Origin: Leptolyngbyaceae cyanobacterium
Lineage (GTDB): Bacteria > Cyanobacteriota > Cyanobacteriia > Phormidesmidales > Phormidesmidaceae
Direction: 5' to 3'
DNA length: 64,000 nt
Assembly: GCA_965263355.1 (NCBI GenBank)
Contig: CBDHHL010000032.1
Location: 1,184,001 to 1,248,000 of the forward strand
Each line of letters starts with the position of its first letter. Positions within the stretch are counted from its first letter, which is position 1. Below the pieces are notes generated by a model. It searched no databases and was not told the DNA's origin. It saw only the letters and a list, made by a program, of their open reading frames with translations. Positions 20,136 through 40,017 of the stretch are shown here, piece by piece. Both the position numbers and the translations under genes were made by a program.

Positions 20136-20444
20136 ATGTCTGTTTATGTGGGCAATTTGTCCTATGACGTTACTCGTCAAGATATCGAGGACGTTTTTAA
20201 TGAGTATGGTCGTGTAAACCGGGTTAGTTTACCGACGGATCGTGAAACAGGTCGCCTTCGCGGATTTGCTTTTGTAGAGATGGCCGCTAAAGAGGATGAG
20301 ACCAAAGCCATTGAAGCCCTAGACGGTGCTGAGTGGATGGGTCGCGTCCTGAAAGTTAATGAGGCTAAGCCTCGCAATGCTTCTGCTGGCGGTGGCGGTG
20401 GCGGTGGCGGTGGCGGTGGCAACTATCGCCGCAACTCTTTCTGA
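20136..20444 (+). CDS. rbp: RRM RNA-binding protein with Gly-rich tail (cyanobacterial Rbp family)
   Basis: RNP2 VYVGNL, RNP1 RGFAFVEM, DGAEWMGR.LKVNEAKPR, poly-Gly from (ggcggt)n. Confidence 0.95.
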   Translation: MSVYVGNLSYDVTRQDIEDVFNEYGRVNRVSLPTDRETGRLRGFAFVEMAAKEDETKAIEALDGAEWMGRVLKVNEAKPRNASAGGGGGGGGGGGNYRRNSF

Positions 20445-20488
20445 ATATGTATCTGCTAACGAAATGAATATTTTGTTAGTGTTCTTTG

Positions 20489-20517
20489 CGAGTGGCTGTA
20501 TGGGCCACTCGTTTTTT
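20489..20517 (+). terminator. Intrinsic terminator of rbp
   Basis: cgagtggc-tgtatgg-gccactcg followed by tttttt. Confidence 0.8.
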
Positions 20518-20539
20518 ATGGGTGCTGTTTTGGTGCTCG

Positions 20540-21169
20540 TTACACTATGGGTGTATCGGCTTGATGCCACATGTACAGTGCCAGATAAGATCGATAGGGC
20601 GCAAAATAGGCGGCAGTGCGAATTGTTTTTCGTCGACGACTAGTTAATCGTTCCAGATTTTTGCGTGCGGTGGTATCGCCATCGGGCCAAATGTCTGGAT
20701 CACCAAAGTAGAAAATGCCCATCATATCTGCCGTCCATTGCCCTACTCCCCAAATCTCCGTTAAACATCGGGTGCGTTCATCATGGTCCAACCCGCTCAA
20801 CCGGACCTCATCTAGCTGACTGGACAATGTAGCCAGAGCAATTGCTCGCATGGCCTTGGCTTTGGCAGCTGATAAACCACAATTGCGTAAGCGGTCCGGG
20901 GAAACTGTTGAAAAATATTCGACCAATGGCTGATCTGCCGCACTCTCTACAACTCGCTGCCAAATCGAAGCTGCGGCTTTAACCGATAGTTGTTGCCCCG
21001 CCACGGCACGACACAAGCGTTCTGGAAACGGAGACTCTTGGTTAAGGGTGAGCTGTAGCGGTTTGGTGGTTGCGATCGCAGCCGCTAATTCATCACTAAT
21101 CTCCTGCGCAATCGCCACAAAACGGGTATGGATTGCACGGGACGATGCTAGTAAATCATCGTCAACCAT
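20540..21169 (-). CDS. DNA-3-methyladenine glycosylase II (HhH-GPD, AlkA-like)
   Basis: GQQLSVKAAASIW, GLSAAK, LTEIWGVGQWTADM, WPDGD, PYRSY. Confidence 0.88.
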   Translation of the reverse strand: MVDDDLLASSRAIHTRFVAIAQEISDELAAAIATTKPLQLTLNQESPFPERLCRAVAGQQLSVKAAASIWQRVVESAADQPLVEYFSTVSPDRLRNCGLSAAKAKAMRAIALATLSSQLDEVRLSGLDHDERTRCLTEIWGVGQWTADMMGIFYFGDPDIWPDGDTTARKNLERLTSRRRKTIRTAAYFAPYRSYLALYMWHQADTPIV

Positions 21170-21226
21170 AGGGGCTTACCTTGTGTATGCTCTGGGAAAA
21201 ACGACCGTTCTAGATGTAGACACGAT

Positions 21227-22636
21227 TTAATTCAAATCAGATTCCAGAATATGCTTTGTATTCAACTGTAAACCAATGGAACCAGTCCCTAACCGTAAAA
21301 TATCTTCGTATTGTTCCAACGAGGCTGGATGAGCTTTTTGTTGACAAACCTGCCAATTCATAGCAGTAGCTTGAGTCACCCCATTGTTCTCGTTCAAAGC
21401 CGCAATATAGCAGTGAGCAACACCCTGGCCCGGTCGAGTTTTCTCACTAGTCATCGTTTCCTCAATTTTGACAGATTCTTGAAAATGTTGTCTTGCGGTT
21501 TTGAGCAATACTTGCTGCTCTGCGTCAGAGGTATCTGCAGCGTTTCCTCGTTTCATGAGAGTGATACCCAGGTTGCGATGGAGTGATGCTTGTAAGAATT
21601 GCTCGTTCTCATTCAAACCCTCCATACCCTCTAATTGATTTAAACCAATGCGGAACAGAACTTCTGCATCTAACAAACCACTCAGTTCTCCAAACTCTCC
21701 TGACTCTTCATTGTTAGCTGCTGCTAAACTTAGGGTGCCCATACCGTTTAGGGCAACAATATCTCCTTTGAGTAATCCATCCTGGTATTCAGCTTGAGCT
21801 TCCTGAAACCTTTCTAGATTTTGATATACCTCCGCCAGGTGATTATGGGGTGCTGTAGCATCTGGGTTAAATGCGATCGCTTCTTTAAAATAATCAATCG
21901 CCACATAGAGATTACCCGCCTCTTGTGCCCTTCGCCCCTTCTCATAATAGAAATTAGAAAATTTAGGCAGAGAGTTATACATACCGTAGGACCCCAAAAG
22001 TAATAAAAGAGAGGCACCTAAGGTCACTTCTGAATGAAAATGAGTAGGAATATTGAGCTTTTTTAATATGCTCTTTACAAATGTCTGACCACGATTTGTC
22101 AGGGCTCCTCCGGCGATTAATACAAGCCCCGTCGCTTGGGACAGGGTGCTCAGAGTTTGTATCAAATCAAACCCACCAACTACGGAAAAAGCTTGGGCCG
22201 TAATGGTCAAAAAAGATGCTGATGTCACCAAACTACCAGCACTTAAAAAGTTCCATAGCCAGTCCAAGCGATCCAATGCATGGATTTTAGTTTCTGGGAC
22301 AGCATCCTCCAACCACCACCACCAGGCTGTTTCGCTAGGTTGACGGCTGCGACGGCAGTCAGCCAGCATATTCTCTTTGGTGAGGGCAGGGGCCAGGTCC
22401 TGCAGTTTATTATCTAACTCACTCAGGACAGCCAAAACCTTGGCCTGCAGACTAATGGAGTTATTAGCCTGTAGCTTAGCCTCAACCGCATCCCGCACTA
22501 ATAGCAGGCGCAGAATTTGCTGCTTCGATATCGTGTCAGAACCTTTATCTAAGCGTGCTAGCTCTTGAGCATAGACCTGTAGTGCTACCTGCACAGGTGC
22601 ATGCTTGGAAAATGATTTAGGGAGTGTTGTAACCAT
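21227..22636 (-). CDS. Membrane-anchored tetratricopeptide-repeat protein
   Basis: Central TM segments followed by TPR-like motifs (AIDYFKEAIAFNPDATAPHNHLAEVYQNLERFQEA). Confidence 0.75.
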   Translation of the reverse strand: MVTTLPKSFSKHAPVQVALQVYAQELARLDKGSDTISKQQILRLLLVRDAVEAKLQANNSISLQAKVLAVLSELDNKLQDLAPALTKENMLADCRRSRQPSETAWWWWLEDAVPETKIHALDRLDWLWNFLSAGSLVTSASFLTITAQAFSVVGGFDLIQTLSTLSQATGLVLIAGGALTNRGQTFVKSILKKLNIPTHFHSEVTLGASLLLLLGSYGMYNSLPKFSNFYYEKGRRAQEAGNLYVAIDYFKEAIAFNPDATAPHNHLAEVYQNLERFQEAQAEYQDGLLKGDIVALNGMGTLSLAAANNEESGEFGELSGLLDAEVLFRIGLNQLEGMEGLNENEQFLQASLHRNLGITLMKRGNAADTSDAEQQVLLKTARQHFQESVKIEETMTSEKTRPGQGVAHCYIAALNENNGVTQATAMNWQVCQQKAHPASLEQYEDILRLGTGSIGLQLNTKHILESDLN

Positions 22637-22693
22637 GCCTGGATTCCGTCTATGATCCGGAATAGTTGATGTTCTTACAGGTATACTGTTCCC

Positions 22694-24097
22694 TTATAGG
22701 GGTAGCAGAACAATAAAACAGGTACGACCTGGAACTGATTCAAGTAATAGACTACCTCCATGCCGTTTTTCAACGATCCGCTGCGCTACATCCAACCCTA
22801 AACCAGTCCCCTTCCCCATCGGTTTGGTGGTAAAAAAAGGCTCCGTCAATCGACTTTGGATTTCCTCCGGAATACCTGGCCCATTATCTTCTACCTCCAC
22901 CCGTAGACAGTCATTCTCTTTACAGGTACGAATAATAATTTTCGGTGACTCTCCAGAAAAACTCTCGTTCAAAGCATCAATTGCATTATCGATAATGTTT
23001 GTCCACACTTGGTTTAGTTCACTTCCAAAGGCCATAATCTCTGGTAGGTTTTGAGCATAGTGGCGTTCCACTGTAATGCCATGTTTAAGCTTAAAGACAA
23101 ATAAACGCAGGGTATCTTCAATGCCATCATGGATATCGATCTGCTGTTGAGCAGCGCGATCCATATAGGAATATGCCTTCATTGATTGAATCAGGGTGGA
23201 AATACGATCGGCCCCATCCAATCCACTTTTGATCATGCCCATGACGTCAAATGATAACGCTAGCCAACGTAGCCCCATCTCCCGCAGTTCAGTGGGATCA
23301 TCGCGCCAACGAGCCATCAATTCATCGAGCTTGGCTGGGTCAACATGTCCAGCGGCTAAGGGGTCTACTAACGTCCAGGCATCTTCGATGCCATAGTCTT
23401 CTAGCCAGTCGGTTAAGGCATCTTCTCGATCACTTTGAGCGAGTGGGTCATTATTAGGATGCGCAATTGCATCAAATCCGCGATCGCGCACTTTTAGCCA
23501 CTCTTCAGTATGCTCATCGTCTACCTGTCGCTGACCGTACACCAGGTTCATACGCTGCAGTTCTAACATGGCAGGTTGTAGATCTTTCATGGCTCGCACC
23601 AGGGCGGCGGCTGGGTTATTGAGTTCATGGGCCAGACCTGCTGACAATGTGCCCAGGGCTGCCATTTTCTCACGGGTTTGAATCAAGGTTTGCAGCCCCC
23701 GCAGGCGCTTACTAACCGTGCGAAAAATATCTCGTTCAAATTCTCGGCAACTGTGGAGAACGTCTAAAAACTCTTCACAGTTTAGCTGGTATAAATCGAC
23801 TTCTGTGTCGGCGGTTAGGGTGACGGGTACTACATCTTCTGTAAGGACTTGAATCTCGCCAAAAAACGATGGGCTTTCATGGCGACCCACGGGCATATCC
23901 ATGCCATTGCTCTGGTGGCTGACGGTAATTTGGCCACTGAGCTGGATAAAGAAGCCTTGGGGCCGATCGCCTTCTTTGACCAGGATTTCGCCTGCGGTTA
24001 AGTGGAGGGGGGAGGCGCGATCGCAAATCCAATCTAACCGCTTCCGAGGCAATGTCCGAAACTCTGGTATTTGCAGTAGAGATTCGACACAGAGCAT
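22694..24097 (-). CDS. Cyclic-nucleotide-binding-domain sensor histidine kinase (soluble)
   Basis: N-terminal cNMP fold (L..GEILVKEGD..FFGEI), H-box GLAHELNNP, ELNQVWTNIIDNAID, DNGPGI, FFTTKPMGKGTGLGL. Confidence 0.92.
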   Translation of the reverse strand: MLCVESLLQIPEFRTLPRKRLDWICDRASPLHLTAGEILVKEGDRPQGFFIQLSGQITVSHQSNGMDMPVGRHESPSFFGEIQVLTEDVVPVTLTADTEVDLYQLNCEEFLDVLHSCREFERDIFRTVSKRLRGLQTLIQTREKMAALGTLSAGLAHELNNPAAALVRAMKDLQPAMLELQRMNLVYGQRQVDDEHTEEWLKVRDRGFDAIAHPNNDPLAQSDREDALTDWLEDYGIEDAWTLVDPLAAGHVDPAKLDELMARWRDDPTELREMGLRWLALSFDVMGMIKSGLDGADRISTLIQSMKAYSYMDRAAQQQIDIHDGIEDTLRLFVFKLKHGITVERHYAQNLPEIMAFGSELNQVWTNIIDNAIDALNESFSGESPKIIIRTCKENDCLRVEVEDNGPGIPEEIQSRLTEPFFTTKPMGKGTGLGLDVAQRIVEKRHGGSLLLESVPGRTCFIVLLPL

Positions 24098-24099
24098 AG

Positions 24100-24264
24100 T
24101 TACTCTCCCTCGCCTGTTAACGCCACATAGCTACCCGAGGCAATCCCTTCAATGCGTCCCCCTTTGATACTGCGGGTCAGCACATAAAAAATGCCGGGAC
24201 CAGGGGTAATGGCTAGCACAATGGCAGCACTGAGAAACAGTGAGAAGGTAGCAAAATCTGGCAT
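24100..24264 (-). pseudogene. LysE/RhtB translocator remnant with large in-frame internal deletion (54 aa); not in ORF track
   Basis: MPDFATFSLFLSAAIVLAITPGPGIFYVLTRSIKGGRIEGIAS joined to a C-terminal GSYVALTGEGE*. Confidence 0.8.
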
Positions 24265-24468
24265 AGGAAACACCTAGTTATGAGGCCAATAGGTTATCTA
24301 ACGTTAATTTGTGTTCTTTTTAACTCTTTTTATAAAAAATGACGTTCAAGTTCCTGCAGCTATTTTAGCGGGTTTAACTCAGAGTTAAACCGTCACAGAA
24401 CTTAGCGTGACTAACGAAGAACGCTATGATTAAGCGGGGCATCCTAAGGTCCAATCAAGCGCTCAGCC

Positions 24469-25119
24469 ATGACCATCTCTCTAGAAAAAGGCACCACCTT
24501 AATCCACCAGCGGCACCATGCCACATGGCAAGATTACATTGCCCTGCGAGATAGCCAGGTAAACGACTGGCGCAAGATTGCGTTTTATCAAGGATGGCTC
24601 TGGGCTGACATGGGCAAGGAAGGACCGAATCATGCCTCGTTTAGCGATTTAGTAACGGCAATTTTCTTTATCTGGGCTTTCTTATATCCCGACGAGGTCT
24701 ATCAATCCTATGGGCGTTGCTTAATTGAGCAACCAGAAACTCAGGCTTGCGCGCCAGACTTGGTGCTCTACAAGGGTGACAATATTCCTAAATGGCAATT
24801 GGGTGAACCCAGACGGATTAGTACAACTCGTCATCGGCTGCCAGACTTGGTCGGTGAAATTGGAGACACCACGCTGAGTCTAGATTTAGATGAACAGAAA
24901 CAACTCTATGCTAGTTTAGGCATCCCCGAGTACTGGGTGATTGATGTAAAAGGAATGCGGCTATTTGCGTTTGGTTTAACTGAATCAGGCAGCTATCAAT
25001 CAATTGAGGTTTCGCGAGTACTCCCAGGGCTAAAACTCTCTCTAGTAGAACAAACACTAGAACGGTTAGAAACAGAAACTAATACAGCTGCCGCTAATTG
25101 GCTACGACAACAATTATAA
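24469..25119 (+). CDS. Uma2 family (DUF820) endonuclease
   Basis: ATWQDY, APDLVLY, PDLVGEI, K..LYASLGIPEYWVID. Confidence 0.9.
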   Translation: MTISLEKGTTLIHQRHHATWQDYIALRDSQVNDWRKIAFYQGWLWADMGKEGPNHASFSDLVTAIFFIWAFLYPDEVYQSYGRCLIEQPETQACAPDLVLYKGDNIPKWQLGEPRRISTTRHRLPDLVGEIGDTTLSLDLDEQKQLYASLGIPEYWVIDVKGMRLFAFGLTESGSYQSIEVSRVLPGLKLSLVEQTLERLETETNTAAANWLRQQL

Positions 25120-25342
25120 ACAGAGTCAAGAAACTAATTCTCTGTTCTCTCTAATTGTGCTCAAATATTTAAGCCATTTGATCTTGCTCATAAAGATATT
25201 GCTGAAAATCTACAAAAACCTGGCTGATCTCGCCTACACTGCCCAATTCTGCAACAGCATCACGTTACGTCCGCAGTGAGGTCGCAATTGACTGCAATAG
25301 ATTTCGCTCAGGGGAAGGGGGAAGCAGGACTATATTAACTTT

Positions 25343-25429
25343 ATTTGCTTTGAAGCACTTTTTATACTGATATATAAGGGGTTCAGACTTTACTAGCCGA
25401 TAGTCTAGATTTGCTTTGAAGCACTTTTT
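25343..25429. repeat. Perfect 21-bp direct repeat atttgctttgaagcacttttt (25343-25363, 25409-25429)
   Basis: Read directly; 45-bp spacer. Confidence 0.9.
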
Positions 25430-25699
25430 TGCTTGTTTTTCAAAGATTTTAGGCTACTAGATAAACTTCCTGAACTTTCTAGCGATCGCACCAATCCACC
25501 ACTGCCTCTTTTGACAAGGCAATCGCCAAAGAACTCGATAAAGACTGAAATCCTGACGTTTGAATGTGTTGCATTGCTTTAGCTTAGCTCAACCAGCAAA
25601 CCTAGAACTGTACTTATAGTCTAAATTGCAAGCCATGAGATATGCCTTGGAAGTGGTGCGTGACTCATACACCCTACCTGGCTAGAAAAGCTCACTAAA

Positions 25700-26299
25700 T
25701 CAACTAATATTCTTTATAAGAAAATCTTTCAAAGGCTTAGTATAAGAATTTTCAATAATCCACAATCTATTATCTAAGTAATCTCTTTCCCTTTCTTTGA
25801 TTTTATTTGATTCATTTTTAGTAAGAATAGCCTCGCAATAAGCATAGATCTTTGACTTCTTATTCAGACGCGTATATTGACCACAATGATCAACACAAGT
25901 TTGATAATTATCAAAGCAGGCTAGTAGGGGATGATGCTCCGGATTGGTACAAGCCAACAATAAGTCTTCTAAGGTGCCTTCATCCTTATCATTTGGAAAA
26001 AGGAAATTTTCTAACAGTAAATCAATCTGAAACTCACGATTTATTTTAGTCTTAAGAGCGCTAATCATTTTAAGTTTTTCTAACCGATTTCGATCAGCAT
26101 CTAAGATAACTATATTGCTGTCTCCATCCTCAAATGTTCGTCTAATATCAACCTCATATTTTGGTAAACTTTGCCAGTTTCCCATACGAACAAACTTAAT
26201 AGGTGAGGATTGCTGTGGAATAACTACTTTAATAAAGTCACTGATGAACTTTTCATCAGCATCTCCTTCAACGTATATATAATTCATACGAGCATTCAT
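25700..26299 (-). CDS. TOPRIM-like protein (DUF3226/DUF4276-like), partner of the upstream ATPase
   Basis: YVEGDADEKF, VILDAD, GTLEDLL, KSKIYAY; AT-rich. Confidence 0.7.
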   Translation of the reverse strand: MNARMNYIYVEGDADEKFISDFIKVVIPQQSSPIKFVRMGNWQSLPKYEVDIRRTFEDGDSNIVILDADRNRLEKLKMISALKTKINREFQIDLLLENFLFPNDKDEGTLEDLLLACTNPEHHPLLACFDNYQTCVDHCGQYTRLNKKSKIYAYCEAILTKNESNKIKERERDYLDNRLWIIENSYTKPLKDFLIKNIS

Positions 26300-26310
26300 A
26301 TAACTGAAAA

Positions 26311-27396
26311 TTATTTACCACGTATTTCTATATCGCTCTCAATACTTGCTTCAAGATTTTCAAAAGCATACTGATAAAGTCTATGTGTGCCAGTATCGCC
26401 TCTTGCCAGTGAGTAAAGTCTTATATCTTCTTTAGAATAATTATTCTCTGACATTACAGTCATAAGAACTTTAATAGCCTCATAGCTGTGTGTTGCAATA
26501 AACATTTGTACATTAGAATCTCTAGAAACTTCTAACATTGACTTCCAAAGAAGCTTAAGCGTTTTATAATGGAGCCCATTCTCAATTTCATCAACCATCA
26601 AAAATCCATCTTCTGAAATTAGAATATTAGCCATTGCTGAACAGGCTTTAAGGAAACCATCACCCATTAAACTTATCGGAATCATTTGCTCAATACCGAT
26701 ATCGATGTAAACGAGCTTATTAAGTCCAAGAGCTATATCTTCTACTTTAGGATCAATTATCTTCAAAAACTTTATTAGGATATCTTTCCGCTTATCTCTT
26801 TGGAGACGATTAACTCTATCTGACAGAGCCCCCCAAAAATCATACCCATTTAAAATTCTTCCATTTAGCTTTTCCTTATAATCAGAATTTAAGGTGATTT
26901 TCAGGATGCCTTGATCAAAATATAACTTGGAAGTATAAACACTCTCTTCATTTACTCCATGAGTAAACTGATAACTTACACCTGAAGCCTCTTGGGAAAT
27001 TCTGGTATCAGAAGCAGCAGAAGTTTCATTTAGAGACTCAGTGGTACTATCTTTATTGGTAAATTGCTCTACAACTGTATTCGAAAATAGAGGTGAGATT
27101 TTTAATTTACGTTTCCCATCTTTTTTCTCAAAAGCTTCAAGAATAATTGTATTATTTGTATCTAAATTTCTGAAATTAAATTTCAAGTCATTAGCTTCGG
27201 TAGACGTTAGCCCTCTAAAGTTATTGATGCTTGCATAGAGTTGTGGATTGGACATTCCAATTAGCAAAAAAATTGACTCTAAGATTGTTGTCTTGCCTGA
27301 ATTATTAGGCCCAACAAAAATATTGATTCGCCTTAAGTCTGATATTTTAAGACTTTGAATACCTCTTAAATTTTGAATAGATAAGTTCTCAAACAT
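26311..27396 (-). CDS. ABC/AAA_15-AAA_21-type ATPase
   Basis: IQNLRGI, Walker A GPNNSGKT, MGDG, Walker B VDEIENGLH, ATHS; AT-rich. Confidence 0.9.
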   Translation of the reverse strand: MFENLSIQNLRGIQSLKISDLRRINIFVGPNNSGKTTILESIFLLIGMSNPQLYASINNFRGLTSTEANDLKFNFRNLDTNNTIILEAFEKKDGKRKLKISPLFSNTVVEQFTNKDSTTESLNETSAASDTRISQEASGVSYQFTHGVNEESVYTSKLYFDQGILKITLNSDYKEKLNGRILNGYDFWGALSDRVNRLQRDKRKDILIKFLKIIDPKVEDIALGLNKLVYIDIGIEQMIPISLMGDGFLKACSAMANILISEDGFLMVDEIENGLHYKTLKLLWKSMLEVSRDSNVQMFIATHSYEAIKVLMTVMSENNYSKEDIRLYSLARGDTGTHRLYQYAFENLEASIESDIEIRGK

Positions 27397-27582
27397 CCCA
27401 CTAAATTTAAACTGAATACACTGCCAAGTAATTGAGATAAAGCGTATATTTATTGATGGTCAGTAAATAGTCAACTGTACACTCCACCAAATATATTCAA
27501 CTTAAGCATCTAAATATCCCTTTTCGAAGTTAGTTTAAAAATATTTTTGATTCTATGTCTACAAGTACAACTTCGGCACTAG

Positions 27583-27715
27583 TTAAACATTCGCCAAATA
27601 TCGATGCACAAACTGCACACAAATCACCCTTTCACCCACACCATACGCCACTCGCTTCACCGCCCCATGGTACACACCACCGTAAAAAATCCCCGGCACA
27701 TTTGTCTCCAACAAC
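27583..27715 (-). pseudogene. Diverged duplicate of the last ~44 codons of the REC-TrxR gene
   Basis: Translates LLETNVPGIFYGGVYHGAVKRVAYGVGERVICVQFVHRYLANV* vs native LLETSVSGIFAVGDVRHGSVKRVASGVGEGSICVQFVHRHLANV*. Confidence 0.9.
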
Positions 27716-27723
27716 AATAAATT

Positions 27724-28764
27724 TCATACATTTTGATCTGACTGTTCATCCCACAATTTCAACCGCTCAGCAATCGCCTCAGGACTCGGCAACTCCTCCC
27801 GATACGCCTCCGGCAACTGCGGCACTATCGTATACGTCGCCACCCCAATCGGCATGGACGCCGTCCGCAACGCATACTCCACCACTATCTTATTCTTGTA
27901 CCGACAAATAATCATCCCAATCGGCGGATTCTCCCCCTCCTCCCGTTCCTGACGGTCCAATGCCTCCAAATAAAACTCCATCTTGCCTTTGTGCTCAGGC
28001 TTAAAGTCCCCAATTCTCAACTCAATTGCCACCAAACATCGCAACCGTCGATGAAACAACAGCAAATCAATAAAATACTCCTGCCCACCCACCTCTAACC
28101 GATACTAATTACCAATAAACGCAAACGCCCCACCCAGCTCAGACAAAAAAGACCGTAGGTTCCGTACCAACGCCTGCTCCAACTCCCGCTCCGAATGCTT
28201 GTCCGCCAGCTCTAGAAAGTCAAACGTATAGTGATCCTTAACCGCCAAAGCTGCCTGAGCCTTGATATCATCCGGCACCGTAGCATCAAAATTCGTCTGA
28301 TTTAGTAGATACTTCTCATAGCTTTTATTATCCACCTGATGCTGCAACACCGACTTGGTCCATCCATAGCGAGCCGTTGCCCGCAGGTAAAACTCCCGCT
28401 CTAAATCATCCTTACAGCGGCTGAAAATTACCAGGTTTTTCGTCCAGCTAATTTCTCTAACCAGTGGTTGGAGATTTGGCTTATCCACATAGGCACAGTA
28501 AAACTGACGCATAAACCATAGATTCTGAGTCGAAAACCCATTGCGCCCCGGAAACTCCGCCTGTAAATCCTGCGCCAGGGTTTCTACCACCGACTTGCCC
28601 CAACCCAAAGCCTGCTGCTTCTGATGGATCAGCTCCCCAATTTCCCAATACAGCCCCACCAGCTCACGGTTCACACTCCGCAGCGCCTGCAGCTGCCGCT
28701 CACGAATACGCTGCTTCACCTCATACAAAAAGCTGCCATAGCCCTGGGGCGTCATCTTACTCAC
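27724..28764 (-). pseudogene. yhcG: YhcG/DUF1016 PD-(D/E)XK nuclease interrupted by one in-frame TAG (28105-28107)
   Basis: VNRELVGLYWEIG, WGKSVVE.LA.DL, KDHYTFDFL, FAFIGN*YRLEVGGQEYFIDLLLFHRRLRCLVAIEL; both ORF-track pieces share one frame. Confidence 0.88.
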
Positions 28765-28873
28765 AACAGTTTTTTCTCTTGGGTATTGCTCAGACTCTCG
28801 GTCAGCTTATTTATACGGATAATGTTTGGTACATCAATGCTATGCAAAATCACGTTCATGCTCCAGAGCATCC

Positions 28874-30526
28874 CTAAACATTAGCCAAATGTCGATGAAC
28901 AAACTGCACACAAATCGACCCTTCCCCTACACCAGAGGCCACCCGCTTCACCGACCCATGGCGCACATCCCCCACTGCAAAAATCCCCGACACACTAGTC
29001 TCCAACAAAAAGCGGTCTCTTTCTAACGGCCAGGGTGTCCCATGGGGAATATCCGCCCCACTATAAATAAAACCCCGCTCATCCCGCTGCACCACACCAT
29101 CAAGCCAGCCCGTACTCGGCGTCGCGCCAATAAAAATAAACAACGAGTTTGTCTTAAACACCTTCACCTCGTCAGCCTGAGAATCCTTCACCAAAATCTC
29201 TTCCAGCCGATCACCGCCTTTCGCCTCTACCACATTGTGAAACGGCATCACCTCAATATTGTCGGTGCCTGCAATCTGGTCAATCAAATACTGCGACATA
29301 CTTTTCGTCAGCGATTCACCCCGCACCAGCATCCGCACCTGGCGGGCATACTTCGAGAAATACATGGCCGCCTGTCCTGCCGAGTTAGCACCACCCACCA
29401 CATACACATCCTCATTCTCACAGGCCGCTGCCTCGGTCTGGGCCGCACCGTAGTACACCCCAGCCCCCGTAAACTGCTCCACACCTGGCACCGTCAGTCG
29501 TCGCCAGGCCACCCCCATTGCCAAAATCAATGCATGACAGCTAATCTCACTGCCATCTGACAGAGTCACAATCCGATAGTTATCTTCCAATCGAATACCC
29601 GTCGCCTCCTGGGGTGTTAAAATCTCTACACCAAATCGCTTTGCCTGGGTTACGGCGCGTCGGGCTAAATCTCCACCGCTCAAACCCACTGGAAAGCCTA
29701 AGTAGTTCTCGATCCGTGAGCTAGTGCCTGCCTGTCCACCAGGGGCCTCGCGCTCAATCATCACCGTACGTAGACCTTCCGACGCGCCATAAACTGCCGC
29801 TGCCAGACCTGCCGGACCACCACCGATGATCACCAGGTCATAAAACGGATTTGCCGCTTCAGTTTGCATCCCTACCTGCTGCGCCAGATCAGCCGGGCTA
29901 GGTTTTACTAGCTTCTCACCGCTGGGCAACAGCACTAATGGCAAACAGGGGTTATCCTTCTCGCCAGCATAGGTAACCAATTGTCGGGCTTCCTGGTTCG
30001 ACTCAATGTCCAACCAGCGATAGGGCACTTGATTTCGTGAGAGAAAATCCCGTAAAGAATGGGAAGCTGGAGACCAGCGATCGCTAATTACCTTTACCCC
30101 CTGAAATACTGGCTTAAACGTCGCCTGCCAGTCCTGTAGCAAATCGTCTAACACCGGATAAAGCTTTTCTTCCGGCGGGTCCCATGGCTTCAGCAAGTAA
30201 TAGTCTAGTTGCGCCGTATTAATGGCATCGATAGCTGCATTGGTATCAGCATAGGCCGTCAATAGTGTTCGCTTTGCCTTGGGAAATATTTCTGCGCCCT
30301 GATTCAAAAATTCAACGCCACTCATCCCCGGCATCCGCTGATCTGCTAAAAACAGTGCCACCGTATTGCCGCGTAGCTTAAGCTGCTGACTTACCTCTAG
30401 CGCCGTTGCCCCTGAGTCAGCTCGCACAATGCGAAAGCGATCTCCATACTGTTTCCGCAGATCACGGGAAATGGTCTGTAAGACAGCAGGATCATCATCA
30501 ATGGTCAAAATAACAGGCTTGTCCAT
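28874..30526 (-). CDS. Response-regulator receiver fused to a thioredoxin-reductase-like FAD/NAD(P)H oxidoreductase
   Basis: REC: IDDD..DQRMP..LLTAY..KPW; GGGPAG, GGQAGTSSRIENYLGFP, GGANSAGQ, AVGDVR. Confidence 0.92.
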   Translation of the reverse strand: MDKPVILTIDDDPAVLQTISRDLRKQYGDRFRIVRADSGATALEVSQQLKLRGNTVALFLADQRMPGMSGVEFLNQGAEIFPKAKRTLLTAYADTNAAIDAINTAQLDYYLLKPWDPPEEKLYPVLDDLLQDWQATFKPVFQGVKVISDRWSPASHSLRDFLSRNQVPYRWLDIESNQEARQLVTYAGEKDNPCLPLVLLPSGEKLVKPSPADLAQQVGMQTEAANPFYDLVIIGGGPAGLAAAVYGASEGLRTVMIEREAPGGQAGTSSRIENYLGFPVGLSGGDLARRAVTQAKRFGVEILTPQEATGIRLEDNYRIVTLSDGSEISCHALILAMGVAWRRLTVPGVEQFTGAGVYYGAAQTEAAACENEDVYVVGGANSAGQAAMYFSKYARQVRMLVRGESLTKSMSQYLIDQIAGTDNIEVMPFHNVVEAKGGDRLEEILVKDSQADEVKVFKTNSLFIFIGATPSTGWLDGVVQRDERGFIYSGADIPHGTPWPLERDRFLLETSVSGIFAVGDVRHGSVKRVASGVGEGSICVQFVHRHLANV

Positions 30527-30651
30527 GGGGCAAAGGTAAACTCATTGTTCGCATTCTGACAAAATCTGAGCCGTCTTATCATGAGAATGGTTAGACTTAA
30601 ATCATAGACAAAATTAGCGGATGCATCACAACCGTTTTCACCCCAAAACCA

Positions 30652-31494
30652 ATGAAAATGAATGCGAGTAAACAGTTTGAGACTCAGGGCTACATTATTC
30701 TAAAAAATTTCTTCGAACAAGAAGAAATTGAGCAAATCACTCAAATCGTTGACCGTATCTTTAGCCAGTGGCACACGGAAAATCAGCATGCAGTCATCGA
30801 GCAACAACTGATCAATATGCACTCGCTCACCCATCCAAAGTACTTTGAAAGCCATGGTCACGAAAGGCTTCAGTTCTTTAATTTAATCGCGTCTGCCAAA
30901 CTCACCAGTGCATTGGAGCAACTATTCAATACAGATATTTATTTTCACAATACACAACTCTTTTTTAACCCCTACAGTAAAGAAAAACATCCCTACTGGC
31001 ATCGTGATTTGCAATACAGCCCCATTGACGACAGGGTGCAGGCTGCAGAACAACACAACATGCTCAGCCTCCATGTGCGGATTCCCCTTGTCGCAGAAAA
31101 AGGAATAGAACTTATCCCCGACAGTCACACTCGCTGGGATACCGAACTGGAAAGAAATGTACGTTTTGAACTGAATGGTCATAAAAACCATGAAGCTCTA
31201 CCTGGGGCAGTCCTAATCGAACTCGAACCACGAGATGTATTAATCTTCAGTGCCCAAATAATTCACCGTGGCAATTACGCCCTGAATCCCACCCGTAAAG
31301 CTTTAGATCTCTGTTTAGGCAAACCCCATCCTTTAGTAAAGAGTTTTCTGGACCCAACAGGTCTGCCTACTAACGAAGAGATCAAACATATTCATAATTG
31401 TTCCTGGTACAATCTGGCACAGGAACTTGTCGCTGCTCAAGCAGAAACCCATGACTCATTTTCCAGAACAGCTAAAAGCTTTACCCAAGTTTGA
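30652..31494 (+). CDS. Phytanoyl-CoA dioxygenase (PhyH) family 2OG/Fe(II) oxygenase
   Basis: F.TQGYIIL..F, WHRD (HxD), IHRG..R. Confidence 0.85.
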   Translation: MKMNASKQFETQGYIILKNFFEQEEIEQITQIVDRIFSQWHTENQHAVIEQQLINMHSLTHPKYFESHGHERLQFFNLIASAKLTSALEQLFNTDIYFHNTQLFFNPYSKEKHPYWHRDLQYSPIDDRVQAAEQHNMLSLHVRIPLVAEKGIELIPDSHTRWDTELERNVRFELNGHKNHEALPGAVLIELEPRDVLIFSAQIIHRGNYALNPTRKALDLCLGKPHPLVKSFLDPTGLPTNEEIKHIHNCSWYNLAQELVAAQAETHDSFSRTAKSFTQV

Positions 31495-31759
31495 CGGTCC
31501 CTTCGACGCCTATAAGCTAACGGCACAAAACTGTGATGTTCTGTTTGCCAGCTATCCTATCGGAACAGAGATTCCACCCCATACCCATGATACCGACAAT
31601 GTTGGCGTGATCACCCAGGGTGAACTCATTCTCATCATGGATGGAGAAGAAAAACACTATAAACCAGGTGACTGGTATCATGTTCCTGCCCAAGCAATTC
31701 ATGCCGCACGATTTGAACAAGAAACCTCAGAAATAGAATTTTGGTTCAAGGTGGATTAG
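31451..31759 (+). CDS. Cupin-domain protein (ATG 31451)
   Basis: PPHTHDT..GVITQGEL..PGDWYHVPA..IHAA. Confidence 0.85.
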   Translation: MTHFPEQLKALPKFDGPFDAYKLTAQNCDVLFASYPIGTEIPPHTHDTDNVGVITQGELILIMDGEEKHYKPGDWYHVPAQAIHAARFEQETSEIEFWFKVD

Positions 31760-31927
31760 AGAGAGTTTTTAGCAAGGGGCAATCAGATATCCAGTCAGAA
31801 GGACCGTTCCCTATGTTAAGAGGTTAGCGTCGTAATGGATAAGTTCAAAAAGGGGGTAGTAGTTAAGGAATAATTAGGAATGGTATGTTTTGATTATGAC
31901 CTCGTCGCTCGTTCATAACTCACAACC

Positions 31928-32917
31928 ATGGTGATCTCCCCCAAACCCATTACCCAAATCGGCAGCAGCTTTGAGTTATCCATTGTTGTGCCCATTTACA
32001 ACGAGTACGAAAGCATTCCATTACTGATCGAGCAAATCAGTGGAGTAGCTCAGTTGATGGATGTACCTTACGAGCTGATTTGTGTGGATGATGGTTCAAC
32101 CGATGGATCTGGGGAGCTACTCAAAAAATTGGCCAGGGAACGTCATGACCTACGGGTTATCTTGCTGCGGCGAAACTATGGACAAACCCCGGCCATGGCA
32201 GCTGGATTTAATTACGCCAGAGGACGGGTCATTGTCACCCTGGATGGCGATTTGCAAAATGAGCCTGCCGATATCGCTACGGTTTACCATAAGCTCCATG
32301 AAGGGTACGACCTCGTAAGTGGCTGGCGTAAAGATAGGCAGGATGATGCGGTGACGCGGTTGCTACCTTCGAAAATTGCCAACTGGCTGATTGCCCGCGT
32401 GACCGGGGTACAGCTCCATGACTATGGCTGTTCGCTCAAGGCCTACAGTGCTGATGTTGTAAAAGACATGAATCTCTATGGTGAACTGCATCGCTTTTTA
32501 CCTGCGTTGGCTTATATAGAAGGGGCCCGCATTAGTGAAGTGCCTGTACGTCACCATGCGCGTCAGTTTGGCCAAAGTAAGTACGGTTTAGGACGCACGT
32601 TTCGGGTGGTATTAGACCTGCTGACCATTTACTTTATGAAGACGTTTCTCACACGCCCCATGCATGTATTTGGTCCGTTTGGTGCGATTTCTGTCTTTGC
32701 TGGTCTGGGTCTCAGTGTTTATTTGGCGTTTGTGAAGTTTATTTTGAACGCTGAGATTGGTAATCGTCCCCTGTTGTTGTTGTCCGTGGTGTTGTTTATC
32801 TCAGGCATTCAACTATTGAGTGTAGGGCTGTTAGCTGAGCTGATGATGCGCACCTATCACGAGTCACAAAAACGCCCTATTTATCGAGTGCGAGAAATAA
32901 TCGGCGGCAAAATTTAA
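31928..32917 (+). CDS. GT2 glycosyltransferase, ArnC/DPM1-like with C-terminal TM helices
   Basis: SIVVPIYNE, VDDGSTDGS, RNYGQT, LDGDLQNEP, DYGCSLKAY, ELHRF. Confidence 0.92.
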   Translation: MVISPKPITQIGSSFELSIVVPIYNEYESIPLLIEQISGVAQLMDVPYELICVDDGSTDGSGELLKKLARERHDLRVILLRRNYGQTPAMAAGFNYARGRVIVTLDGDLQNEPADIATVYHKLHEGYDLVSGWRKDRQDDAVTRLLPSKIANWLIARVTGVQLHDYGCSLKAYSADVVKDMNLYGELHRFLPALAYIEGARISEVPVRHHARQFGQSKYGLGRTFRVVLDLLTIYFMKTFLTRPMHVFGPFGAISVFAGLGLSVYLAFVKFILNAEIGNRPLLLLSVVLFISGIQLLSVGLLAELMMRTYHESQKRPIYRVREIIGGKI

Positions 32918-32953
32918 GTTTGGGTGTATGGATGCCTAATCTTGAATGGATGC

Positions 32954-33361
32954 CTAATCTTGAATGTAGGGGGCACCATTGACGAGGGAAATTTCAGCAC
33001 GCATAAACTCTCGTCCAAGATAGGCGGCATGGTCCAGATAGCTAATGGGACAGGGGTTTTCTTTGTCCTCGAACAGTTTTATGCACAGCTCCTTAGCAGT
33101 GCGCCCCTGATACAAACGAGTTTCTTGGCGTGGTGGGGTATCTTTTTTACATACCAAGGGTTCACCAGTTTCAGGATCACAGGCCACACCTTTGTCGTTA
33201 ATCACATTGGTGAAATGTTTAGCGCAGATGAGTCCTTGGTCAGTGTCTAAATAGATCAGGAAATAACCGTCAGGATCAAGTGCAATAAATCGTTTGGATA
33301 GCTTATCGTCTAAGTCCTTGAGCGTATCGGCAGAGGGACTACTATATTGACTGGTGGTCAT
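32954..33361 (-). CDS. DUF4346 family protein
   Basis: IALDPDGYFLIYLD, GRTAKEL, LDHAAYLGREF..AE. Confidence 0.85.
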   Translation of the reverse strand: MTTSQYSSPSADTLKDLDDKLSKRFIALDPDGYFLIYLDTDQGLICAKHFTNVINDKGVACDPETGEPLVCKKDTPPRQETRLYQGRTAKELCIKLFEDKENPCPISYLDHAAYLGREFMRAEISLVNGAPYIQD

Positions 33362-33431
33362 GGCAGAGAAGCGGTTTCAAATTAAGTTTCTTTGAGTCCC
33401 ATATTCTACCGTGCAGACTCTTTAATTTCAC

Positions 33432-34649
33432 TTATCCGCCAGTTCCTGCTTCCTCAATAACTAAGGGCTTGAGGGGCAAATCTGCATTGATATGGTCGAT
33501 TTCTTGTTGTTCGGCGGCGTTAATCCGGTCGATATAGTTATCGAGGACCTGGGCTAATGTAGGATGATAAAACTTATGCAGGCTATGGTTAGGCGCGGCA
33601 GGAAACCCACGACGTTTTTTGTGACGTCCACCGGCACCAGGGTCAAATTGTTGAATGCCGTTGGCAATGGCCCAGTCGATGGGTTCATAGTAGCAGGCAT
33701 TGAAGTGGAGATGGTTGTAGTCTTCGTGAGCGCCCCAGTAGCGGCCATAGAGCAAATCGCCTTTGGTTAAGCAAAAGGACATGCCGATGGGGTCGTTGCT
33801 ATCGTCGCTGTAGGCAGCAAAAATGACGGTGCGATCGCAATACTCCGGATGCAGCTGCTGAAAAAACTTACGCGTGAGATACTTGCTACCCCACCAGCCA
33901 AACTTATCGCAGGTATCACTATAAAAGTCGTAAACCAAATTGCATAGAGTATCTGATAGACCATCGCCGCTGTGCACCTCAAAGTGCAGCCCAGCTTTAG
34001 CAACCGATTTACGCTCCCGCTTAATATTGCGACGCTGGTTAGCATTAAAGCGAGCCAGGTAGTCATCAAACGTTTTGTAGCCTTCGTTTTTCCAGATATA
34101 GCTATGGTGCAGCCACTTATAAAAACCTAGCGCTTCCATAGAACTCTGCCAGACAGGGTCAGCATACAGAAAATGGCAGCCTGAAATCTGATTTTGCAGG
34201 CAAAACTGATCGATGGCCGCCACCATTACCTGGGTGAGTGTGGCCTCATCTTCCCCAGTGGCAATCAAAAACCGGTAGCCCTCAGCAGGGGTAAAGGGTG
34301 ACATACCCAATAACTTTGGATAGTAGTCAATCCCCAGCTGATCGGCTAAATCAGCCCACTGATGATCAAAAATAAACTCACCACGACTATGACCCTTGAG
34401 GTACAGCGGTGCGGCTGCGACTAGTTTGTCTTTGTACCACACTGTCAGATGGTTAGGCAGCCAGCCTGTCTGAGCTTTAGTACTGCCGGATGTTTCCATA
34501 GAATTGAGCCAAAACCACTCAAAAAAAGGTGTTTTGAGCGGTTGCGCCATGCTATCCCAGTCTGCTGCAGACAGGTCTGCCATACGATTAACCCAACGCA
34601 GCGTGTAGTCGGTCAATGACTCAGTTATGGTTGTCCCCATTCTTGGCAT
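33432..34649 (-). CDS. GNAT/FemAB-like (DUF482) protein
   Basis: PLYLKGHSRGEFIFDHQWA, YYPKL, LYGRYWG, LHFNACYY, FDPGAGG.HK. Confidence 0.88.
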   Translation of the reverse strand: MPRMGTTITESLTDYTLRWVNRMADLSAADWDSMAQPLKTPFFEWFWLNSMETSGSTKAQTGWLPNHLTVWYKDKLVAAAPLYLKGHSRGEFIFDHQWADLADQLGIDYYPKLLGMSPFTPAEGYRFLIATGEDEATLTQVMVAAIDQFCLQNQISGCHFLYADPVWQSSMEALGFYKWLHHSYIWKNEGYKTFDDYLARFNANQRRNIKRERKSVAKAGLHFEVHSGDGLSDTLCNLVYDFYSDTCDKFGWWGSKYLTRKFFQQLHPEYCDRTVIFAAYSDDSNDPIGMSFCLTKGDLLYGRYWGAHEDYNHLHFNACYYEPIDWAIANGIQQFDPGAGGRHKKRRGFPAAPNHSLHKFYHPTLAQVLDNYIDRINAAEQQEIDHINADLPLKPLVIEEAGTGG

Positions 34650-34686
34650 AGCGTTATTGGTTCTTTACGGTAATGTAGCGCGGTAG

Positions 34687-34770
34687 ATGGGGAATGGGAA
34701 GACGGGGAATAGGGAATGGGAATCCCCAACGGGCAATGGGCAATGGGAATCCCCAATGGGCAATGGGCAG
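34687..34770. repeat. STRR-like heptamer array (gggaatg/gggcaat) with ggaatccccaa inserts
   Basis: Read directly between the GNAT and RibD-like genes. Confidence 0.8.
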
Positions 34771-34779
34771 CGAGATTTT

Positions 34780-35496
34780 TTACCGCTGTCGTTGGTAATT
34801 TAAGAACACTTCATTCCCAATGGTTTGATTGGATATCAGTCTGAACCTGGGAGCATTTGCTAGGGAGAACCCAGGACCATCGCAGGGTGTGGGAGCATTA
34901 TAGCCACCGATGATCAAGGGACAAATGGTCAACCAGAGTTCATCAATCAGATCTATGGCCATGAGGTCGGCAACCAATTGACCACCACCCATTACCACTA
35001 GATGATGATTGCCCAGAGTTTTAAGTTCGGTCAAAATTTGTTGCCAGTCAAAATGGTTTGTATTTTGCTGAGTGGGTGCGTTCCAGATACGCTCAAAGTT
35101 ATCTTTTCCTTGCCAGGGTTCACCCCCTCTGGCGGTGGTTATTAACCAGCGCGGAACTGGCTGACTAAAGAAGGGTGCAGTCGGATCCAGCTGTCCTGAT
35201 GCAGAGCAGACAATCTGCAGTGGCTGGGGATTTTTTTGGTGTTGACGTCGTTTTTCCAATAGGTCTAGATCTTTAATGATGGCAGTGGTGCCGTAGGCTC
35301 TTAGGGTGCCAGCTCCAAATAACGTGGCATCTGCCTTGGCTAAACACTGTTCGAGATGGCGTTGATCAGCGTTTGATGGAAACCGGGCGGCAGTACGATG
35401 GGTATCGCTGATTTTGCCATCAGCACTCATGGCCAAAATAGTAGTGACGTGGGGACGACTTGTCGGTTTATGGCTACGCTTGTGAGCTGGCGGCAT
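34780..35496 (-). CDS. RibD C-terminal-domain reductase family protein
   Basis: LAMSADGKI, GAGTLR, MGGGQL, LIDELWLTICPLIIGG. Confidence 0.88.
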   Translation of the reverse strand: MPPAHKRSHKPTSRPHVTTILAMSADGKISDTHRTAARFPSNADQRHLEQCLAKADATLFGAGTLRAYGTTAIIKDLDLLEKRRQHQKNPQPLQIVCSASGQLDPTAPFFSQPVPRWLITTARGGEPWQGKDNFERIWNAPTQQNTNHFDWQQILTELKTLGNHHLVVMGGGQLVADLMAIDLIDELWLTICPLIIGGYNAPTPCDGPGFSLANAPRFRLISNQTIGNEVFLNYQRQR

Positions 35497-35955
35497 GGGC
35501 TTATTGGTACATAAATAGCTGTATTGGCTAGTCGGCTAGCTTGGTTGCAAAACATGTCATGTGTGATGCCCGTCAACATTTGGTTTCAGGCGATTGAGTA
35601 ACCTTTGATAAGGCTTCATCTATATGAGTGCTAATTCAACTTTTGGCAAGGTAGCCGGTAGTGAGGTAAGACCAGTCGATAAACTAGGTGGGTGCTGGTA
35701 CCGGTATCAGTAGTAACACAATGGTCGTAAGTACGATTATTGTGAAAACTGATATTGATGCATGGTGATTTAGCAGTAGAGATAACATCGAGATAGACGA
35801 AGCTTTCATGGGGGCGAGGTAGCTTCGATTAGACTATGGCAGGCTGGTAGGTATTTCTTATACGTCGTTATCTATGATTTGGAAGCTATGTCTTATCTAC
35901 AATCCCTGTTGAAATCAGTGGCGATTCTTAGATTCTTATAAGTTTTTAGCGGTTT

Positions 35956-37995: not shown

Positions 37996-38030
37996 TAATG
38001 AGATGGATAGTTGACGATGGGGTTAGGCCC

Positions 38031-39113: not shown

Positions 39114-39197
39114 AGGCGGTGTCTAAACTGCCTGATTTTGATTTAAACCTTGTCCAAGTCCAAAACTGGAGTTTTTCCCTAGAAGAACCTAAAGGTT

Positions 39198-39977: not shown

Positions 39978-40017
39978 TTATTTGGTGGGCGTTGCCCACC
40001 CTCCTACCTGAAAAAAT

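Follow-up and report, generated by a model that had tools for sequence, protein, structure and literature searches.

The window, by which the whole stretch of 64,000 nt analyzed is meant, carries on the minus strand an intact gene for a REC-domain, thioredoxin-reductase-like flavoprotein (trxR from here on), whose TIGR01292 score of 214.7 bits falls short of the cut-off (343.45 bits). It is followed by yhcG, a second trxR end, an AAA ATPase gene and a DUF3226 gene (Table 1), and the order intact trxR end, yhcG, second trxR end given in the initial annotation holds on this strand.

Table 1. Features of the trxR-to-kinase region of the window, in minus-strand order
Feature	Position	Strand	Basis or remarks
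Intact REC-domain/thioredoxin-reductase-like flavoprotein gene (trxR), 550 aa; left slot anchor	28874..30526	-	Pfam Response_reg + Pyr_redox_2
G/T-skewed last ~600 nt of trxR; may have been replaced, with a breakpoint around nt 1050-1120	28874..29476	-	Synonymous G+T, allele similarity
Duplicated tail of the intact gene	28875..29011	-	Window self-BLAST
yhcG, DUF1016 PD-(D/E)XK nuclease pseudogene (PADLOC PDC-S02)	27724..28764	-	In-frame TAG at 28105-28107
Illegitimate joint between yhcG stop and fragment	27718..27723	-	Compared with six trxR alleles
Displaced, decaying trxR tail (fragment)	27583..27717	-	45 codons, one codon deleted
AAA ATPase gene, AbiL-like/PDC-M38A, 33% GC; foreign cargo directly behind the fragment	26311..27396	-	
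DUF3226 gene, ATPase partner (weak AbiLii/PDC-M38B)	25700..26299	-	
5' scrap of nucleotidyltransferase (MNT) gene	25458..25598	-	83% to G047 MNT gene region
Segment common to the window and the yhcG-bearing G050 island	25072..25439	-	92% and 87%
Uma2 nuclease gene	24469..25119	+	Same slot in G037 (91% nt) and G004
5' scrap of LysE gene, older slot resident	24135..24268	-	
cNMP-domain histidine kinase gene, usual REC-TrxR operon partner; right slot anchor	22694..24097	-	

In the window self-BLAST, positions 27584-27717 align with 28875-29011 in the same orientation (81.9% identity, 138 columns, E 3.9e-31), the sole gene-tail duplication among the 12 self-matches listed. What had been described as a decayed copy of the last ~44 codons of trxR is confirmed as an 82% copy of its last 45 codons, and the translation given earlier is correct; the copy has lost one codon and ends in TAA (27583-27585). 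The fragment shares the frame of yhcG but lies downstream of the yhcG stop (27724-27726), the gap measuring 6-8 nt according to the alignment start chosen. Nine of 44 residues are off consensus, against 0-4 in intact orthologues. The 44-residue piece behind yhcG is debris, and annotators should be warned of it, as of the fact that yhcG is broken: its in-frame TAG, absent from the initial annotation, falls at codon 220, a CAG in the closest orthologue. The best match comes from run X3, another sample of the same study and independent only as to the correctness of the assembly; its contigs cover 26121-27777 and 27748-28969 with no other letters and no gaps, and carry the same TAG; hence neither the junction nor the yhcG stop is an assembly error, and an artefact is ruled out also by the 82% identity between the copies. 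A minor X3 contig (depth 6.7, min_likeness 85), joining fragment-like to intact-tail-like sequence, may come from another strain or from mis-mapping between the repeats, and was left out, as were runs X4-X6, which gave small pieces only.

The stretch from trxR to the kinase is a gene-turnover slot in related marine cyanobacteria (individual genomes are denoted by G numbers). The two genes adjoin in distant loci, and have varied cargo between them in close loci. The cargo behind trxR differs widely among relatives, much of it not being nuclease, and the fixed gene order that the initial annotation had weighed against capture is not what these loci display. The segment shared with the G050 island contains a 21-nt repeat pair 66 nt apart, the Uma2 end, and a broken gene end, presumably of the restriction type, judging from the adjacent ResIII piece in G050. 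No empty site was found in a conspecific strain, the nearest relatives (92-95% at the amino acid level) having other cargo. In an indel map of the sister genomes G001 and G037, two 400-kb stretches are collinear over just 33 kb.

The fragment is 86, 85, and 84% identical to the orthologues at the trxR locus of three other genomes, vs. 82% to the gene of its own window. At synonymous sites it agrees with G050 in 30/35 cases (P 0.0005) and with its own gene in 25/34 (shuffled 0.62, P 0.05), the intact tail agreeing with G050 in 29/43 (P 0.20). The fragment looks more G050-like (29/35) than the 5' part of the window trxR (24/34), as would equally suit a fragment of foreign origin, but the difference is not significant (P 0.26), and a tree of the 138-nt tails gave no resolution. 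Consensus residues N and P are kept in the fragment, and lost from the intact gene. The two tails look like different alleles; an unrelated paralogue closer to the fragment, another outcome envisaged at first, was not met with, trxR-locus orthologues being the best matches.

Third codon positions of yhcG are identical to those of G050 in 185/227 cases and of G047 in 88/119, figures higher than those for nt 1-1050 of trxR (189/310 and 160/297; P 3e-7 and 2e-4), and yhcG identity stays above composition-matched shuffles. The gene has moved recently. It resides directly behind trxR in G002 and with one gene in between in G047; in G050 it lies at another, unrelated locus, preceded by a scrap of trxR tail. 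Two of five closer yhcG relatives are bracketed by a gene tail, while 70 more distant DUF1016 loci had no clear bracket (5 short or unclear repeats); DUF1016 loci do not support yhcG as a self-mobilising, always tail-duplicating gene.

The 3' ends of trxR do undergo replacement, the sister genomes G001 and G037 differing at 27/1050 nt in the 5' part and 46/600 nt in the 3' part. The intact gene of the window also shows signs of a foreign 3' part. Past the breakpoint it is closer to the G039 and G037 alleles, the differences from G039 numbering 188/1050 in the 5' and 66/600 in the 3' part. In separate trees the window pairs with G039 for the 3' part (92/90 and 89/90) and not for the 5' part, but the AU test does not reject the pair in the 5' part (p 0.084). 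MaxChi detected a mosaic (P<0.05) in 14/20 triplets on all sites, and in 3/20 once G-bearing sites were dropped, so that the signal is confounded by convergent G/T bias; the breakpoints were picked after the data had been seen. Synonymous G+T rises from 0.60 upstream to 0.77 in the last ~600 nt of trxR (P 6e-5), a value like the 0.80 of yhcG (P 0.51). A strong GRINS-like G/T skew is common to the last 600 trxR bases, yhcG and the fragment, its step coincides with the apparent trxR breakpoint, and none of 445 background tiles is equally skewed.

Most likely the fragment marks no integrase docking site but is a scar of the ordinary kind that one-sided recombination leaves. Quite probably a homologous crossover and an illegitimate joint, one of each, have united two slot alleles, in the manner of insertion with long target duplication and of HFIR, whichever side the crossover took. 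The slot would gain and lose cargo without a dedicated recombinase, and that of the window would be a hybrid, the left part (trxR 3' end and yhcG) deriving from one allele, the right part (trxR tail, AAA-DUF3226 and older scraps) from another, the illegitimate joint lying 6 nt past the stop of yhcG, the homologous crossover somewhere else. The likeliest single reading, with chances about even, is that the crossover lay in trxR, at about nt 1050-1120, the incoming trxR end plus yhcG replacing the resident gene end. The trxR end and yhcG of a relative would have paired by homology and provided the new gene end, the free end of the incoming DNA being joined to the resident trxR 135 nt before its stop; the old trxR end, left stranded, would then have decayed, and the nonsense change in yhcG would be later than the insertion. 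We infer the one-sidedness, which side the crossover took, and the route, namely natural transformation or the repair of breaks. Among the proposals of the initial annotation, a homology-facilitated route is the best reading. Entry of yhcG with a replacement tail stands in part: the balance favours a replaced trxR end, but yhcG may not be the incomer that displaced the tail, which could have come with AAA-DUF3226, since trxR tail scraps travel ahead of cargo (G050).

Similar scars are found at other genes. A free downstream copy of the own tail follows 4/861 genes, namely hsdM in G065, a kinase gene in G052, an integrase gene in G011, and the window trxR; fadE in G050 is an additional, weaker case. 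In G065 the old hsdM tail still overlaps the hsdS start. HFIR has been proven experimentally in Acinetobacter, Streptococcus and Pseudomonas, whereas the window is known from sequence alone; 3-10-bp microhomologies are typical of it, whereas none was seen at the window joint against six trxR alleles, the joint being aged and the alleles compared possibly not donor or recipient. The window joint differs also in falling inside the homologous region, hence the duplication.

It is possible, though on the unlikely side, that trxR-yhcG was resident, and that a donor with trxR tail, AAA-DUF3226 and further genes, anchored by homology on its right (Uma2/LysE/kinase), was joined illegitimately behind yhcG; the fragment would then be a hitch-hiker, and the intact gene untouched by the event. 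The trxR tail scrap preceding yhcG at the unrelated G050 locus fits this, as do the likeness of the fragment to G050, greater than to any other genome, and the G050 island, which has yhcG and the 25072-25439 segment without AAA-DUF3226, as expected if the latter is a newcomer. The ATPase pair, at 33% GC, has no close relative in 172 family genomes, the best relatives of the ATPase being 28-33% identical. Against it, the last 600 nt of the intact gene look mosaic and have the composition of yhcG, yhcG has itself moved recently, and the stranded hsdM tail of G065 is clearly the original one. That slippage or unequal crossover duplicated the trxR end of the window in place, deletion and decay coming later, is improbable: the copies lie on the same strand 1.3 kb apart, end at the stop codon, and own-tail identity slightly exceeds chance at synonymous sites, but the tails of three other genomes are closer to the fragment, the latter retains the N and P lost by the intact gene, and the sequence behind the stop has no second copy.

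A displaced gene end is also known from integrase islands, e14/icdC being an example. The initial annotation had proposed that the trxR end is a docking site for nuclease cargo. A duplicated trxR tail was found in 1/142 loci tested, the window itself, and in 0/20 further trxR loci. The absence of a visible integrase, noted earlier, holds among the window ORFs scanned, which include no transposase either, and neither tRNA or ncRNA target nor terminal repeats were found at the locus. With a lone duplicated locus, much non-nuclease cargo, and none of these elements, the docking site is unsupported, and a tRNA or ncRNA target is ruled out. A relic of an integrase island of the icd/e14 type, its attB within the 3' end of trxR and its integrase lost or acting in trans, is very improbable. 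Its anatomy would be a textbook one, because integrase islands restore the target gene and leave a displaced fragment (Islander, PMC4383910), and the window shares with those described there the succession of intact gene end, cargo, and displaced gene end. The 11 identical bases at the repeat start would also suit an attachment core, but are conserved in all orthologues. The window differs from such islands in lacking an integrase among the ORFs scanned, a tDNA target and a recurring attachment position; the insert is a single gene, and the other scars of the family lie at unrelated genes and have different lengths. Scarcely credible is the remnant of a second full trxR paralogue deleted to its tail: a few family genomes (G047, G159) have two full copies on different contigs, but the best fragment matches are orthologues beside PhyH/cupin, and the slot has no other pieces of a second gene or its kinase.

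Two further candidates were rejected: a diversity-generating retroelement (8/24 differences have A in the fragment and 2 have A in the gene, with no reverse transcriptase in the scanned window ORFs), and an insertion sequence or transposon (no terminal inverted repeats, transposase or short target duplication). HIP1 sites are absent from the junctions.

The window resembles in its working the insertions with long target duplication outlined by Furuta, Abe and Kobayashi (2010, PMC2853133), without being a restriction-modification (RM) case. As in their class, a nuclease-type gene is flanked by a direct repeat longer than 30 bp (here 135-138 bp, 82%) spanning the stop codon of an intact target gene, the insert is below 20 kb (1.16 kb, one gene), and no mobility gene was seen in the ORFs scanned; such insertions are described from Microcystis too, as is one type with nothing but a McrA nuclease. 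The cargo of the window differs in being a YhcG/DUF1016 pseudogene (PADLOC PDC-S02) rather than R and M genes or an RM component, with no methylase, and the repeats in being 82% alike and looking like two alleles rather than a copied target, with no empty site found in the same species. With the hotspots free of mobile elements presented by Oliveira et al. (2017, PMC5635113) the slot shares fast cargo turnover between two conserved neighbours, and, as to recombination in flanking core genes, the raised divergence of the flanking end (G001/G037). Here the exchange spans species of one family, not strains, and the window allele retains the stranded tail. A single scar matters little, being one more snapshot of the integrase-free entry of a defence-like gene into hotspots, in a marine cyanobacterial family; its use lies in a dated junction within a slot whose alleles can be compared over many genomes.

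The G/T skew is weakly general for genes with cargo behind, a G/T-richer end being found in 15/21 cargo-followed gene families (P 0.008), trxR itself included. The skew is mirrored on both sides of the slot in the window, G001 and G037; such symmetry, expected from a resection model, is not general, the 5' ends of genes behind cargo in 15 families changing by +0.002 (P 0.68). The skew is absent from the G052 scar and from many trxR alleles with cargo. About 6/30 top-skew genes had nuclease, toxin or transposase neighbours, a count that covers the neighbours of the top-ranked genes (23 proteins). A strand-polar capture, in which the sense strand of the upstream gene is the single-stranded invader, G/T-enriched at each round, and the skew the footprint of end replacement between species, is a doubtful explanation, based on the skew step, the background tiles and the count of gene families, and weakened by the lack of a 5' mirror effect, by the unskewed cargo-bearing alleles and G052 scar, and by the inclusion of trxR in the family test. 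Enrichment could come from deamination of single-stranded DNA, or from a better tolerance of G.T or other G mismatches in heteroduplexes. If true, strand-polar capture would supply GRINS-type skews with a mechanism, and with a natural test case beyond PKS clusters; should skew prove to be linked to repeated end replacement, one genome could be enough to reveal capture hotspots by it, and the link would bear on the origin of GRINS.

GRINS, as reported by Nivina et al. (2021, PMC8256042), are duplicated stretches tied to recombination in which intense G>C and T>A skews are correlated and peak at third codon positions, features which the window recalls. The window duplicate measures 135 bp, against the >500 bp at >80% identity of GRINS, most of the skewed 1.9 kb is single-copy, and exchange is apparently between genomes, not between paralogous modules. 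The skew amounts to 0.57/0.25 and 0.49/0.35 in the two repeat copies, and to 0.35/0.12 (TA skew 0.12) over the 1.9-kb stretch, with a correlation of 0.6.

The initial annotation placed a copy of the trxR 3' end behind yhcG, and this copy is genuine: self-BLAST of the window aligns the two tails in the same orientation at 81.9% identity over 138 columns (E 3.9e-31), the sole gene-tail duplication among 12 matches. The translation proposed for the copy is also correct. The fragment lacks one codon relative to the trxR tail and has 9 departures from the family consensus in 44 positions, where 33 intact orthologues have 0-4, and is thus a decaying displaced gene tail. Contigs of a second sequencing run (X3; another sample, from the study holding the best match to the window) cross both the yhcG stop and the joint behind it without any difference from the window. 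One minor contig of this run (see Table) may be either another strain's allele or a mis-mapping.

The 550-aa trxR product, in which a receiver domain is joined to a thioredoxin-reductase-like flavoprotein, scores under the cut-off for true TrxR. Its partner, a cNMP-domain kinase, is found close behind trxR in most distant loci and 4.8 kb away in the window, cargo genes filling the slot. The AAA ATPase and DUF3226 pair has 33% GC and is AbiL-like/PDC-M38. Among named records, those of Adonisia and Leptolyngbyaceae come nearest (91-95% identity). The first gene behind trxR in relatives may be TMEM175, MNT-HEPN, a WD40 protein, LysE, a PadR pair, AcrB, HerA, a solute-binding protein or others, so the slot is variable, as had been anticipated, yet not specific for nucleases. 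Distant AAA ATPase relatives (loci L227-L234) begin about 40 bp behind one conserved gene, presumably proA-like, in 7/9 loci, and this position is another fixed slot for ATPase cargo.

Features of the window and of loci from other family genomes
Feature	Coordinates	Remarks
trxR	28874-30526 (-)	tail aligned at 28875-29011
yhcG pseudogene	27724-28764 (-)	in-frame TAG at 28105-28107
Fragment (displaced trxR tail)	27583-27717 (-)	aligned at 27584-27717
Partner kinase	22694-24097 (-)
Slot, trxR to kinase		yhcG, fragment, AAA ATPase + DUF3226, scraps of MNT / restriction-type gene / LysE, Uma2
Stretch shared with G050	25072-25439
21-nt repeats	25343-25429	two, identical, 66 nt apart; without Rfam match; G050 carries additional, more degenerate ones
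Rpn-family (DUF4351) gene	621-1778	last third strongly G/T-rich at four-fold sites (84%)
EF-G paralogue, then Uma2 gene	45759-48766
Dispersed repeat, ~67-77 bp	39141-39217, 57341-57407, 61800-61868, 19911-19987	both orientations, 71-82% alike
X3 minor contig	28983 to 27694	depth 6.7; joins fragment-like and intact-tail-like sequence
hsdM locus (G065:C72)	L196:2810-6680	hsdM, yhcG, 34-bp hsdM tail, GIY-YIG gene, 61-bp hsdM tail overlapping hsdS start
fadE locus (G050:C24)	L193:7300-11700	trxR tail scrap, yhcG fused to HsdS end, AlbA-domain gene, restriction-gene pieces, Uma2 end
Kinase (G052)	L340:2534-3561	95-bp tail copy downstream of intact partner kinase
Integrase-like gene (G011:C1)	L274:6863-8830	labelled from sequence
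Retroelement-like locus (G009:C52)	L273:570-2972	reverse-transcriptase-like ORF, template repeat, target gene end differing mostly at adenines

Used as query, the fragment has matches in 68 of 172 family genomes, the best ones at orthologous gene ends, and is closer to genomes G050 (86%), G037 (85%) and G001 (84%) than to its own gene (82%). At synonymous sites it agrees with its own gene at 25/34 (0.62 in shuffles, P 0.05) and with G050 at 30/35 (P 0.0005). Between the intact tail and G050 the figure is 29/43 (P 0.20); a direct comparison gives no significant difference (P 0.26). Consensus residues lost from intact trxR persist in the fragment. Taken with the synonymous-site matches, these residues favour two alleles, rather than self-duplication, as the source of the tails.

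Exchange of trxR ends is clearest in the sister genomes G001 and G037, which differ in cargo and show 27 differences in nt 1-1050 of trxR and 46 in the last 600. Window trxR differs from that of G039 at 188/1050 positions and then at 66/600 past the same point; a control comparison across this point showed no change (P 0.23). Of the separate trees called for, the 3' tree groups window and G039 (92/90; 89/90 with fewer rows) and the 5' tree does not. Counting against a mosaic, the 5' part has p 0.084 in the AU test, and MaxChi falls below 0.05 for 14 of 20 triplets if all sites are used and for 3 of 20 once G-bearing sites are removed, breakpoints having been selected after inspection of the data. 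The G050 island has in common with the window yhcG and the stretch 25072-25439 (92%, 87%), but not AAA-DUF3226, and the 9 matches of the ATPase in the 172 genomes reach no more than 33%. Both observations count against the direction first proposed, entry of yhcG with replacement of the trxR end, which the G001/G037 exchange and the grouping with G039 support. Whichever allele was resident, the window slot combines the left part of one with the right part of another through one illegitimate joint; end replacement is somewhat favoured as the direction.

yhcG combines DUF1016_N and YhcG_C (PADLOC PDC-S02); its in-frame TAG, CAG in the closest orthologue, was absent from the initial annotation. 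DUF1016 genes occur in 113 of the 172 genomes. In G002 a member of the close clade (75-90% at the nucleotide level) immediately follows trxR, and in G047 one gene intervenes; the G065 member lies behind hsdM and that of G050 behind fadE, the latter with a decayed trxR tail scrap directly ahead. The 3' side is cut short in G002, G047 and G050, each time at a different point. Third-position identity of yhcG is 185/227 to G050 and 88/119 to G047, above that of the first 1050 nt of trxR (189/310 and 160/297) and above composition-matched shuffles (0.58, 0.48), pointing to recent movement of yhcG between the three lineages. As 70 more distant DUF1016 loci gave no clear case of a gene-tail bracket, yhcG is cargo, not the engine of tail duplication.

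The displaced tail is of a kind already described. Among described classes it comes nearest to insertion with long target duplication (PMC2853133), where nuclease or restriction-modification genes sit between repeats of >30 bp, often across the stop codon, without a mobility gene, Microcystis cases included. Homology on one side and an illegitimate joint on the other, a mechanism outlined in PMC6382021 and PMC3784515, would account for the scar, in a hotspot devoid of mobile elements whose flanking genes recombine, the setting sketched in PMC5635113. Integrase islands, as presented in PMC4383910, look alike in outline but depend on an integrase. The trxR end had been regarded as a docking site; site-specific integration fails, because the tail is duplicated in 1/142 loci that have 500 or more downstream bases (some redundant), the window itself, and in 0/20 further loci, no integrase was seen among scanned window ORFs (scans of 10, 2 and 47), and no tRNA was found. 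No nearby second tail was found in three genomes with two fragment matches, among the best candidates (at most five per genome), nor any Rfam match within 20000-40000. Insertion sequences and diversity-generating retroelements fail too, the same scans revealing neither transposase nor reverse transcriptase, terminal inverted repeats not being found, and only 8/24 differences between the tails falling at adenines. An Rpn-family gene lies 26 kb from the repeat.

In 209 cyanobacterial loci, 861 genes of at least 200 aa were searched for free-standing copies of part of themselves no more than 6 kb away. These loci were partly picked for trxR and yhcG and include two cases known beforehand, so that the rate is not genome-wide. 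Tails were found downstream in 5 cases and upstream in 1, a head upstream in 1, middles downstream in 1 and upstream in 1. The tail-upstream case is a diversity-generating retroelement, and one tail-downstream case, a short tandem repeat, was dropped, leaving window trxR, hsdM (G065), the partner kinase (G052) and an integrase-like gene (G011). In G065 one hsdM tail lies behind yhcG, another behind a GIY-YIG gene; the last still overlaps the hsdS start, hence the stranded tail is the original, and this type I restriction-modification operon holds two layered insertions, with replacement of the gene end. The kinase tail copy (95 bp, 80%) lies about 0.9 kb downstream and has no strand skew; the last 290 bp of the integrase-like gene recur at 94% behind a 194-aa gene. 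The displaced fadE tail of G050 (39 bp, 79%, E 0.004) is below threshold, and lies on the far side of a trxR-slot piece moved behind fadE; within this piece yhcG is rich in G and the HsdS part fused to it rich in C (C at 52% of four-fold sites in the last 60 codons). No displaced tails were found in 400 kb of G037. The G009 locus we take, from its sequence, to be a diversity-generating retroelement.

The scar matters mostly through a lead on G/T strand skew. Sense-strand synonymous G+T is 0.60 in trxR nt 1-1050, 0.77 thereafter, 0.80 in yhcG, 0.86 in the fragment, and 0.59-0.62 in AAA-DUF3226. In the last third of trxR, four-fold sites are G in 58% of cases, against 22 +/- 8% in 150 ORF ends of G037, and a 1.9-kb stretch, picked for its skew, has a GC skew of 0.36, equalled by 0/445 fixed tiles of window, G037 and G001. 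The rise along trxR recurs in G050, G039, G037 and G001, and is absent from G002, G004, G005 and others. Deamination of single-stranded DNA and tolerance of G.T pairs during strand exchange are candidate causes. The last 100 codons are G/T-richer in genes with a cargo marker at most 700 bp behind (36 vs. 653 genes, P 3e-5); with families merged, 15/21, trxR among the 21, are above zero (mean +0.049 vs. -0.002 in 464, P 0.008). The 5' ends show no mirror effect. The skew resembles that of GRINS as outlined in PMC8256042, but the duplicate is shorter than the 500 bp that define GRINS; searchable literature, at the level of listings and with most subscription journals outside coverage, yielded nothing tying skew to cargo-slot flanks. 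Of the ends seen here, the most strongly G/T-rich (+0.26 to +0.35) are those of one gene family (~550 aa; L270, L272, L282, L284, L289, L294), whose members adjoin yhcG or are convergent with it. The EF-G paralogue ahead of a Uma2 gene shows G/T enrichment of its last 100 codons, +0.11 in the window and +0.22 in G037, and probably marks another slot like that behind trxR.
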